A stretch of DNA of 64,000 nt from Fibrobacterales bacterium (GTDB lineage Bacteria; Fibrobacterota; Fibrobacteria; Fibrobacterales; CADBQJ01). Position 1 is the stretch's first letter. Each line of letters opens with the position of its first letter. This document shows, piece by piece, positions 61,674 to 64,000 of the stretch. Below the pieces are notes generated by a model, which saw only the letters and a list, made by a program, of their open reading frames with translations, was not told the DNA's origin and did not search any database. A program made the position numbers and the translations under genes. The stretch lies in contig JAGCEZ010000055.1 of assembly GCA_017650365.1 (NCBI GenBank), positions 7,453 through 71,452 on the forward strand, in the 5' to 3' direction.

Positions 61674-64000
61674 GCTTCGCCAGCCCCTCCGGCTTCCCCT
61701 GGTAGAGGATCCGGCCGCCCGCGTCGCCCCCCTCGGGCCCGAGGTCGATCACCCAGTCCGCGCGGCGGATCAGCTCCAGGTGGTGCTCCACCACGACGAT
61801 CGTGTGCCCCTGCGCGGTGAACTCGCGCAGCAGCGTCCAGAGCTTGGAGACGTCGTGCGGATGGAGCCCCGTCGTCGGCTCGTCGAGCACGTAGACCGAG
61901 GCGCCGCGCGGACGGCGCGAAAGCTCCGCCGCCAGCTTCATCCGCTGCGACTCGCCGCCCGAGAGCGTGGTCGCCGGCTGGCCCAGCTTGAGGTAGCCCA
62001 GCCCGATCTTGCGGAAAAGTTCGCAGACGCGCGCGATCTTCGGCTGCGCCGAGAAGAAGTCCGCGGCTTCGTCGAAGCTCATCTCCATCACGTCGGCGAT
62101 CGACTTCCCCTTGAACTTCACGCGCAGCGTGTCGCCGTTGAACCGCGACCCGCCGCAGGCCTCGCACTTCTCCCAGACGTCGGAGAGGAAGTGCATCTCC
62201 TGGAAGATGTACCCGCGCCCCTCGCAGACCGGGCAGCGCCCCTCCTTGACGTTGTAGGAGAAGCGGTTCGGGCGGTAGCCGCGCACCTTGGACTCGGGCA
62301 GCGACGCGAAGAGGTCGCGCAGCGAATTGGAGACCGACGTGAAGCTGGCCGGCGTGGAGCGCGGCGTGGTGCCGATCGGCGACTGGTCCACGAAGACCAC
62401 TTCGGCGAAGGGCTCGTCGACCTTGAGCTTCCCGAGGCCCGCGACGCGGTGGCGCTTTCCGCAGAACCGGTTTTCGAGCAGCGGGAGGAGGCAGCCCCGG
62501 ACGAGCGAGCTCTTGCCCGAGCCGGAGACGCCCGAAACGACGGTCAGCGCCCCCTCCGGGAACTCGGCGTCCACGGACTTGAGGTTGTGGAGCGAGGCGC
62601 CGGCGAGGCGCATCCAGGCCTTGGGCGCCGGCTTCGCGGATGCGGTCTCGCCGGCGCCGATCCGCAGCCGGCCCGAGAGGTACGCGCCCGTGAGCGAGTT
62701 CTCCGAGGCGCGGATCTCCGCGGGAGTCCCCTCCGCGACGAGGCGGCCGCCGAGGGCCCCGGCCCCGGGGCCGATCTCCACGACGTGGTCGGCGGCCTCG
62801 ACGATCTCGGGGTCGTGCTCCACGACGAGCACCGTGTTGCCGAGGTCGCGGAGGCGCTTCAGGGTCTCGAGCAGCAGGCCCGTGTCGCGCGAGTGGAGCC
62901 CGACGGTCGGTTCGTCGAGCACGTAGAGCACGCCCTCCAGCCCGGAGCCGATCTGGGACGCGAGCCGGATGCGCTGCGCCTCCCCGCCCGAGAGCGTGTC
63001 GCCCGCGCGGTCGAGCGCGAGATAGCCCAGCCCGACGTGGCGCAGGAAGGAGAGCCTTCCCTCGATCTCGCGCAGGATCGGCTCGGCGACGGGCCGCTCG
63101 GACTTCGTCCACTTCAGGCGCGCGAACTCCGCGGCGCACTCGTCGATCGTCAGCCGGCTCAGCGCCGTGACGCTCCGCCCGCCGATCTCCACCGCCGCGA
63201 ACTCCGGCTTCAGCCGTTCGCCATGGCAGGCCTCGCAGACCGAGCCGTCGTCGAACTCCCCGAACCCCTCGCATTCCGGGCAGGCGCCCCAGTGCGAGTT
63301 GAAGGAGAAGTTGCGCGGCTCGTACTCGCCGTCCGCTAGCCAGTGGCGGTCCGGGCAGGACCAGAACTCCGTCATCCAGAGCGGTTCGGACATCCCCTCC
63401 GACCAGAAGGCCACCGCGCCCGAGGCGTGTTCGCGCGCCTTCTCCACCGCTTCGAAGAGCCGCGACCTGTTCTTCTCGTTCGCCTCCAGCCGGTCGACCA
63501 CCGCGTAGCAGTCGGACTTCGCGTCGACCTTGGCGGATTCGGAGAACTCGAACCGCCGCCCCGCGCTCCAGAGCCCGAGGAAGCCCAGCTCCTCGAGCCG
63601 CGAGACGATCCGCCCGAGGTGCGCGCGGTTCTTCGCGAAGTAGCGCTGCGGGCGATCGGGAGACATCACCGGGACGAGCACCCAGACGAGGCCGGAGAAC
63701 TCCTTTCCGACGCGGCGCCAGACGTCCGGGAGGAAGCTCCGCTCCAGGGGCTTTCCGCAGGTCGGACAGTGCGGGACGCCGAGCCGCGCGTAGAGCAGGC
63801 GGAAGTAGTCGTAGAGCTCCGTCATCGTCGCGACCGTGGAGCGCGGCGAGCGGTTCGAGCTCTTCTGGTCCACGGCGATCGCGGGCGAGAGGCCGTGGAC
63901 GCTCTCGACGGTGCCCGGCTCCATCTGCCCGAGGAAGCGCCGCGCGTAGCTGCTGAGCGACTCCACGAATCGGCGCTGGCCCTCCGCGAAGAGCGTGTGG
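61543..64000 (-). CDS. uvrA: Excinuclease ABC subunit A (N-terminus beyond the window edge); lacks the insertion domain
   Basis: ..HTLFAEGQRRFVESLSSYARRFLG..GLSPAIAVDQKS.., LSGGEAQRIRLASQIG, VLDEPTVGLH, GVSGSGKSSL, LSGGESQRMKLAAEL, VLDEPTTGLH. The frame stays open to position 64000. Confidence 0.93.
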   Translation of the reverse strand, partial: HTLFAEGQRRFVESLSSYARRFLGQMEPGTVESVHGLSPAIAVDQKSSNRSPRSTVATMTELYDYFRLLYARLGVPHCPTCGKPLERSFLPDVWRRVGKEFSGLVWVLVPVMSPDRPQRYFAKNRAHLGRIVSRLEELGFLGLWSAGRRFEFSESAKVDAKSDCYAVVDRLEANEKNRSRLFEAVEKAREHASGAVAFWSEGMSEPLWMTEFWSCPDRHWLADGEYEPRNFSFNSHWGACPECEGFGEFDDGSVCEACHGERLKPEFAAVEIGGRSVTALSRLTIDECAAEFARLKWTKSERPVAEPILREIEGRLSFLRHVGLGYLALDRAGDTLSGGEAQRIRLASQIGSGLEGVLYVLDEPTVGLHSRDTGLLLETLKRLRDLGNTVLVVEHDPEIVEAADHVVEIGPGAGALGGRLVAEGTPAEIRASENSLTGAYLSGRLRIGAGETASAKPAPKAWMRLAGASLHNLKSVDAEFPEGALTVVSGVSGSGKSSLVRGCLLPLLENRFCGKRHRVAGLGKLKVDEPFAEVVFVDQSPIGTTPRSTPASFTSVSNSLRDLFASLPESKVRGYRPNRFSYNVKEGRCPVCEGRGYIFQEMHFLSDVWEKCEACGGSRFNGDTLRVKFKGKSIADVMEMSFDEAADFFSAQPKIARVCELFRKIGLGYLKLGQPATTLSGGESQRMKLAAELSRRPRGASVYVLDEPTTGLHPHDVSKLWTLLREFTAQGHTIVVVEHHLELIRRADWVIDLGPEGGDAGGRILYQGKPEGLAKLKGNATGEALRRTASSPSAASASSRGKPTSGARAGRSRRADRP

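Follow-up and report, generated by a model that had tools for sequence, protein, structure and literature searches.

The window analyzed here, a 64,000-nucleotide stretch of contig JAGCEZ010000055.1 (positions 7,453 to 71,452, forward strand) from a Fibrobacterales bacterium (assembly GCA_017650365.1), ends inside a uvrA gene. Its visible part encodes a UvrA whose zinc module 2 lacks the insertion domain (ID) that separates the two Cys pairs of this module in canonical class I UvrA. This zinc module belongs to the second unit of a two-unit UvrA fused head to tail. The first unit, encoded beyond the window edge, has an ID, and the apparent ID-less UvrA is an effect of the window edge.

Zinc module 2 and the complete uvrA gene

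The uvrA reading frame runs on the minus strand and is open for 818 codons from position 63999, with its stop codon at 61543–61545. Many long open reading frames (ORFs) in the window are spurious because its overall G+C content is 68.9%. Codon-position G+C of the UvrA frame is 0.67/0.50/0.94, and this frame is therefore a real gene. Translation of window positions 63202–63288 yields GACPECEGFGEFDDGSVCEACHGERLKPE, visible residues 238–266. In this segment the CPEC and CEAC pairs of zinc module 2 are separated by 11 residues (EGFGEFDDGSV). The coordinates 63226–63282, given in a preliminary description made from the DNA letters, are exact: they run from C240, which opens CPEC, to C258, which closes CEAC.

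Alignment to known UvrA structures (phmmer, PDB chains), a check proposed in that description, gave two matching blocks with each homologue. Query residues 2–247 and 252–801 aligned with residues 66–310 and 430–985 of M. tuberculosis UvrA, skipping 311–429. For B. stearothermophilus UvrA, query residues 2–248 and 254–787 aligned with 64–302 and 423–954, skipping 303–422. The gap sits at the ID, and 119–120 residues of canonical UvrA are absent from the window ORF. The Pfam model of this domain, UvrA_DNA-bind (PF17755), found no match in the visible 818 residues. UvrA_inter (PF17760), the UvrB-binding domain, matched visible residues 127–197 with 30.6 bits (cut-off 23.3). For the flagged unit the earlier claims are borne out: a loop of 11 residues replaces about 120, both ABC modules occur with all their ATPase motifs, and the unit is not of the class II type since it keeps the UvrB-binding domain.

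The 818 visible residues were modeled with AlphaFold2 (mean pLDDT 82.3, pTM 0.73). Confidence was high over the shortened zinc module 2 (pLDDT ~89–93, visible residues 221–270) and ranged from 79 to 93 in the UvrB-binding domain. The top Foldseek match of the model was a class I UvrA from a UvrA–UvrB complex (3uwx_A, TMq 0.76); D. radiodurans UvrA2 and Ecm16 ranked below the class I structures.

The visible ORF opens with HTLFAEGQRR, which corresponds to about residue 43–45 of a UvrA unit, and the gene therefore runs past position 64000. The window's own gene was extended by way of the exact product of the neighboring GH18 lipoprotein gene, which led to contig L020 (ENA ERZ28653711 scaffold_3105). 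This contig is 100% identical to window positions 57091–64000 over 6,910 bases and then continues. Its uvrA gene (4453–9942, minus strand) has 1,829 codons, of which the visible residues are 1012–1829 (offset 1011), and it extends ~3.03 kb past the window end. A protein cluster of 13 member sequences, P0121, is likewise 1,829 aa long and 99% identical. Homology to the window also falls in the second half of a two-unit UvrA protein in two further genomes, a Fibrobacteres metagenome-assembled genome (MAG) with a 1,972-codon ORF (L001) and one labeled Fibrobacter succinogenes RUG14205 (L002; 70% G+C, best segment 77% identical).

Unit 1 of the full protein (residues 1 to ~955) is a complete class I UvrA with two ABC ATPase modules and three zinc modules; Pfam placed a strong UvrB-binding domain at 132–234 and the ID (PF17755) at 290–391. 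Unit 2 (residues ~970–1829) repeats this layout minus the ID, so that UvrA_inter is found twice in the chain and UvrA_DNA-bind once. The units are joined by a Pro/Ala/Gly/Asp-rich linker of ~28 residues beyond the canonical termini; the median in the family is 22–26 residues. Judged by curated models, the protein counts as a UvrA. It scored 2227.6 bits against TIGR00630 (cut-off 729.8) and 2289.3 bits against PRK00349 (cut-off 1147), residues 3–943 covering the entire latter model. The visible fragment alone also exceeded the TIGR00630 cut-off, at 888.5 bits, and fell below that of PRK00349, at 924.7 bits. Measured against class I UvrA, both units have the UvrB-binding domain (PF17760 in each), the ID is found in unit 1 and replaced by 11 residues in unit 2, and the chain is one of 1,829 residues and two units rather than of ~940 residues.

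The preliminary description had taken the whole protein for a UvrA without the ID. This does not hold: the full protein has an ID at residues 290–391, in unit 1 beyond the window edge, and an ID elsewhere in the chain was the observation named beforehand as speaking against that claim. A domain that seems to be missing from an ORF cut by a window edge may lie in the part of the chain that is out of view. Nothing inside the window contradicts a stand-alone UvrA of ~860 residues that lost the ID, kept the UvrB-binding domain and would form a new class beside I and II, and stand-alone ID-less UvrAs do exist (P0086, P0093 and Planctomycetaceae L003/L004, discussed below). For the window gene we nevertheless regard this as highly improbable. 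The frame is open to the window edge and gains 1,011 codons in the identical L020 and the 99%-identical P0121; the unit boundary has no start codon context and the linker is in frame; and all close relatives, the best 120 matches, are tandem.

An in-frame deletion produced by a collapsed or chimeric contig, that is, an assembly or sequencing artefact, was also considered. The sources are metagenome assemblies, and one contig (L021, 99% identical) has indels in unit 2 of uvrA at ~11446–11512 (window ~63029–63068), a 19-nt indel between window positions 63068 and 64000 and a truncated gene call of 662 aa. This variant is either an assembly error or a pseudogenized allele. Against an artefact, three metagenome assemblies from different samples agree at ≥99.97% over the window part of uvrA, and the same junction, 10–11 residues long in dozens of homologues, recurs in 46 listed sequences from ENA, JGI, NCBI and Logan, one of them on a contig of 9.5 Mb from Ca. 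Uabimicrobium amorphum. Because independent assemblies agree and the family conserves the junction, this explanation was ruled out, and we assign it a negligible probability.

Tandem and stand-alone UvrAs without an insertion domain

The best 120 database matches to the full-length 1,829-residue query all have the tandem architecture. Landmark analysis of the matches listed identified 46 sequences, including the window protein, with an ID-less second unit, and 70 with an ID in both units. In the first type the junction gap of unit 2, as measured by regular expression, is 8–10 residues (25 in one sequence) and the proteins are 1,746–1,984 aa long; named sources are Fibrobacter sp., Fibrobacterales, Fibrobacteraceae and Ca. 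Uabimicrobium amorphum. By the same measure the gap in the second type is 108–154 residues, in proteins of 1,880–2,387 aa from Gemmatimonadetes, Latescibacteria, Poribacteria and Planctomycetes. The best BLASTP alignment covered 96–100% of the query for the ID-less type and ~69% for the two-ID type. We provisionally define a group, tandem UvrA with an ID-less second unit (Fibrobacterota type), by four Walker A motifs, an ID in unit 1 alone, a unit 2 junction of about 8–10 residues by the regular-expression measure and colinear alignment over ≥96% of the length; the 46 sequences, the window protein among them, fall within it. ID-less UvrA had been proposed as something whose distribution should be traced. 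It does recur, in the 46 listed sequences, but there as the second unit of tandems.

In a rough neighbor-joining tree (BLOSUM62 distances, no support values) the ID-less second units formed one divergent clade together with the ID-bearing second units of P0140, P0144 and P0195. Because they share this clade, the ID loss is secondary, inside an older fusion. Tentatively, the ID was possibly lost more than once within the tandem family.

Individual members carry additional sequence. Several two-ID tandems from Planctomycetota (P0139, P0142, P0148 and others; 2,136–2,387 aa) have ~250–450 residues beyond two units plus a linker. In unit 1 of the L001 protein (7532–13450), a ~190-residue low-complexity insertion at ~250–440 consists of ~34-residue repeats (SPQRAPDSRPQERRNSSSISSAENAADGVRSGD...); it follows the UvrB-binding domain and immediately precedes the second Cys pair of zinc module 1.

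By these comparisons the window protein is an ordinary member of a large, widespread double-UvrA family, whose members are publicly annotated as "excinuclease ABC subunit UvrA". A full-text literature search found nothing on tandem or duplicated UvrA, although it missed the papers defining the UvrA classes, so that "class IIb" or "class III" may already cover ID-less or tandem forms. The asymmetry seen at the family level is only moderately surprising.

Stand-alone UvrAs lacking the ID were found elsewhere. P0086 and P0093 are 865 and 870 aa long with a complete N-terminus (L026, 1462–4059), and two Planctomycetaceae MAGs, L003 (923–3484) and L004 (9959–12523), contain stand-alone UvrA ORFs of 854–855 codons. 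All four have ~14–17 residues where the ID belongs and keep the UvrB-binding domain. P0086 and P0093 grouped with canonical UvrAs in the neighbor-joining tree and lie in ordinary chromosomal context. By that tree, the stand-alone proteins appear to have an origin separate from the tandem family's. Loss of the ID seems to have happened on several independent occasions, in the tandem second units, in P0086/P0093 and in Planctomycetaceae L003/L004. Tentatively, such repeated loss suggests that the ID matters less in vivo than current models hold.

Conserved residues and possible role of the second unit

Residues are numbered as in E. coli UvrA, for which a 940-residue sequence served as the reference. 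It holds the published residue at 9 of 9 published mutant positions (positions from PMC3025350). Conservation was counted in the 46 ID-less second units among the matches listed. The Walker A lysines K37 and K646 are present in unit 2 of 46/46 sequences, and the Walker A lysines are kept in 46/46 in both units. The equivalents of two residues at the UvrB interface, R216 (46/46) and E222 (42/46), are likewise conserved in unit 2, as are the DNA-binding residues R712 and R730 (46/46 each), with K or R at 722 and 724. In the E. coli protein the UvrB surface is disrupted by R216A/E222A, and DNA binding is lost when R712/R722/R724/R730 are mutated together (PMC3025350). Within the tandem protein itself, Walker A, Q-loop, LSGGE, Walker B and H-loop were found in all four nucleotide-binding domains (NBDs), and unit 2 has intact zinc modules 2 and 3. 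Identity of unit 2 to E. coli UvrA is 48.5%. With its catalytic, UvrB-contact and DNA-contact residues intact, unit 2 looks functional.

From this observed architecture we infer that the protein is most likely a single-chain UvrA "dimer" of two units and one ID that works in nucleotide excision repair. Units 1 and 2 would fold back on each other and rebuild the head-to-head UvrA2 dimer within one chain. The product, a monomer of ~200 kDa, would have a single DNA groove, four sites for ATP hydrolysis, two for UvrB docking and one ID, and would serve as damage sensor and UvrB loader. A single ID would be enough, the other being partly dispensable. When its residues 290–400 are deleted, E. coli UvrA still incises short damaged duplexes, with poor damage discrimination, and the deletion affects global repair more severely than transcription-coupled repair (PMC3025350). 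One ID is plausibly sufficient since that variant still supports incision.

Several observations weigh against this reading. Cryo-EM of M. tuberculosis complexes calls the IDs essential for DNA coordination (PMC11985968). Unit 2 is the more diverged half, with a median identity to the family of 53% versus 59% for unit 1, and its UvrB-binding domain reaches just the 30.6 bits given above. In its zinc module 1 the second Cys pair reads CPDRH; most relatives keep CxxC at this site. This may be a Cys3His coordination switch or loss of the zinc site, and some functional loss in unit 2 has to be allowed for. The corresponding residues in L002 are C-P-H-R-H.

The same features could be read as decay, with unit 2 a non-catalytic appendage kept as a scaffold and the ID loss one step of its degeneration. 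Longer branches and lower conservation than in unit 1, the weak UvrA_inter score and the zinc module 1 Cys pair lost in the lineage of the window protein would fit. However, every ATPase motif is intact in both NBDs of unit 2; Walker A lysines, UvrB-contact residues and DNA-binding arginines are kept in 42–46 of 46 sequences; the junction keeps its length throughout the clade; and the model folds with confidence. We consider decay unlikely.

UvrA paralogues with altered domain content commonly protect against DNA-binding natural products (PMC9328131, PMC10192343), which lends some plausibility to an accessory paralogue of this kind, resembling class II proteins such as DrrC and Ecm16. But both units of the window protein keep the UvrB-binding domain, which class II lacks, and Ecm16 requires its own ID for DNA binding. 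The 64-kb window holds housekeeping neighbors and no biosynthetic gene cluster, and Foldseek placed class I structures above UvrA2 and Ecm16. A role as an accessory paralogue is thus very unlikely, and a class II or drug-resistance UvrA was ruled out by the UvrB-binding domain and the absence of a biosynthetic cluster nearby.

Within the favored reading, a single-chain dimer in excision repair, a more specific proposal is that the Fibrobacterota-type tandem is a UvrA "dimer" made covalent and asymmetric by nature, in which a single ID is combined with four ATPase sites and two sites for UvrB docking. We put this forward tentatively, as a possibility that we would not yet bet on. An asymmetric UvrA2UvrB1 intermediate has been described, and symmetry-breaking posed as an open question (PMC11985968). 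If the asymmetry is functional, fixing the lesion-engaging side or which UvrB receives the damaged strand, the tandem protein would be a ready-made tool for addressing how the symmetric UvrA2B2 complex becomes the asymmetric one-UvrB pre-incision complex (PMC11985968). One ID per pseudo-dimer would also be a natural experiment on how many IDs damage recognition needs and on symmetry breaking at the UvrB hand-off. The interest is for excision-repair specialists; no new mechanism is demonstrated.

Genomic setting and comparison with known systems

Table 1. Positions in the window of the visible uvrA features, the overlapping gene and further genes of the locus. Residues are those of the visible ORF where marked "visible".
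Feature	Position	Strand	Basis or remarks
Visible 3' part of tandem uvrA	61543..63999	-	Residues 1012–1829 plus stop; unit 2 without its first ~43 residues
Zinc module 1, first Cys pair (CPTC), unit 2	63757..63768	-	Translation
UvrB-binding domain, unit 2, visible ~82–225, diverged	63325..63756	-	PF17760, conserved R216/E222 equivalents, model
Zinc module 1, second Cys pair, unit 2, degenerate SCPDRH, visible ~214–219	~63343–63360	-	Translation
Zinc module 2, unit 2 (CPEC, 11 residues, CEAC)	63226..63282	-	Translation, alignment, model
First NBD, unit 2: ABC signature LSGGEAQR and Walker B VLYVLDEPT	62905..62994	-	Full-length residues 1347–1376
Second NBD, unit 2: Walker A GVSGSGKS	62509..62532	-	Full-length residues 1501–1508
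Zinc module 3, unit 2 (C-terminal zinc finger, CPVC...CEAC)	62155..62235	-	Translation, motifs
Second NBD, unit 2: ABC signature and Walker B	61873..61965	-	Full-length residues 1690–1720
C-terminal tail, ~31–33 residues, Ser/Ala/Arg/Gly-rich	61546..61644	-	Predicted disordered; antisense to 3' end of DTW gene
Convergent DTW-domain gene, 219 aa	61014..61673	+	PF03942, 110 bits; same gene call in L020–L023
dnaE	5835..9461
Pyruvate:ferredoxin oxidoreductase gene	30483..34046
nuoL/M-type subunit genes	39473..42986

The locus is core chromosome in a housekeeping context. Besides dnaE, the pyruvate:ferredoxin oxidoreductase gene and nuoL/M-type subunit genes (Table 1), the window contains PBP2 and RodA genes and an outer-membrane and glycan-utilization cluster with two GH18 lipoproteins. 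In L020 the region upstream of uvrA holds a further GH18 gene (10081–11295) and aroE/aroK-aroB. Neither a biosynthetic cluster nor a mobile element or defense island was indicated in the 64-kb window, and no uvrB or uvrC gene was found in it. This context suggests that the tandem protein is the housekeeping UvrA of its genome.

The GH18 lipoprotein genes adjoin each other on the plus strand (57337–58890 and 59008–60882) as paralogues with a common 865-nt stretch of 79.8% nucleotide identity; the second starts at ATG 59008 with a lipoprotein signal. A GH18 gene also lies next to the tandem uvrA in L002. At 9262–13002, long ORFs of 1,153 and 1,170 codons occupy both strands with codon-position G+C of 0.81/0.49/0.81 and 0.81/0.49/0.80, and composition alone does not decide the coding strand there.

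The 3' ends of uvrA and the convergent DTW gene overlap by 131 nt (61543–61673). Codon-position G+C in the overlap is 0.64/0.64/0.86 for the DTW frame and 0.65/0.84/0.65 for the uvrA frame. Because its frame runs antisense to the GC3-rich 3' end of DTW, the G+C peak of the UvrA tail falls at position 2, and this by itself gives codons for Ser, Ala, Arg, Gly and Pro. AlphaFold2 pLDDT is below 50 from visible residue 792 (the last ~27 residues). The tail is absent in P0122, the closest divergent homologue, and varies across the family, several members having short Lys-rich tails. The basic Ser/Ala/Arg tail reported in the preliminary description does exist, but its antisense composition and its absence in P0122 indicate that it is not a designed extension; the best reading, from these sequence comparisons, is an incidental run-on of the frame until a stop is reached.

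Class I UvrA, as in E. coli, B. stearothermophilus (2R6F) and M. tuberculosis (3ZQJ), provides the layout common to each unit. The window protein differs from it in having two units per 1,829-residue chain, the second without an ID and, in this lineage, with a degenerate second Cys pair in zinc module 1. Class II UvrA (D. radiodurans UvrA2 2VF7, DrrC, Ecm16 7SH1) is also UvrA-derived with one accessory domain missing. There, however, the UvrB-binding domain and zinc module 1 are absent and the ID is kept, the reverse of unit 2 in the window. Class II proteins ranked lower against the window ORF in both sequence and fold searches.

Closer in architecture is the Chlamydia-type double UvrA (NCBIfam NF001885 / PRK00635, 1,809 positions), likewise a tandem fusion and of near-equal length. 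Chlamydia UvrA has ~1,786 residues. The NF001885 model matched the window protein colinearly over residues 13–1199, but with 1267.1 bits against a cut-off of 3054 the protein is not a member of this equivalog. The model length of 1,809, roughly 943 + 866, hints at an ID-less second unit in the chlamydial protein as well, which is suggestive only. The two-ID tandems of Gemmatimonadota, Latescibacteria, Poribacteria and many Planctomycetota (1,880–2,387 aa) share the same fusion and four Walker A motifs; they differ in unit 2, where 108–154 residues separate the two Cys pairs of zinc module 2. Engineered ID deletions (E. coli delta290–400 and B. stearothermophilus delta-ID) remove the same domain at the same boundaries as in unit 2. 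These engineered proteins are homodimers without either ID, whereas the natural tandem keeps one per pseudo-dimer.

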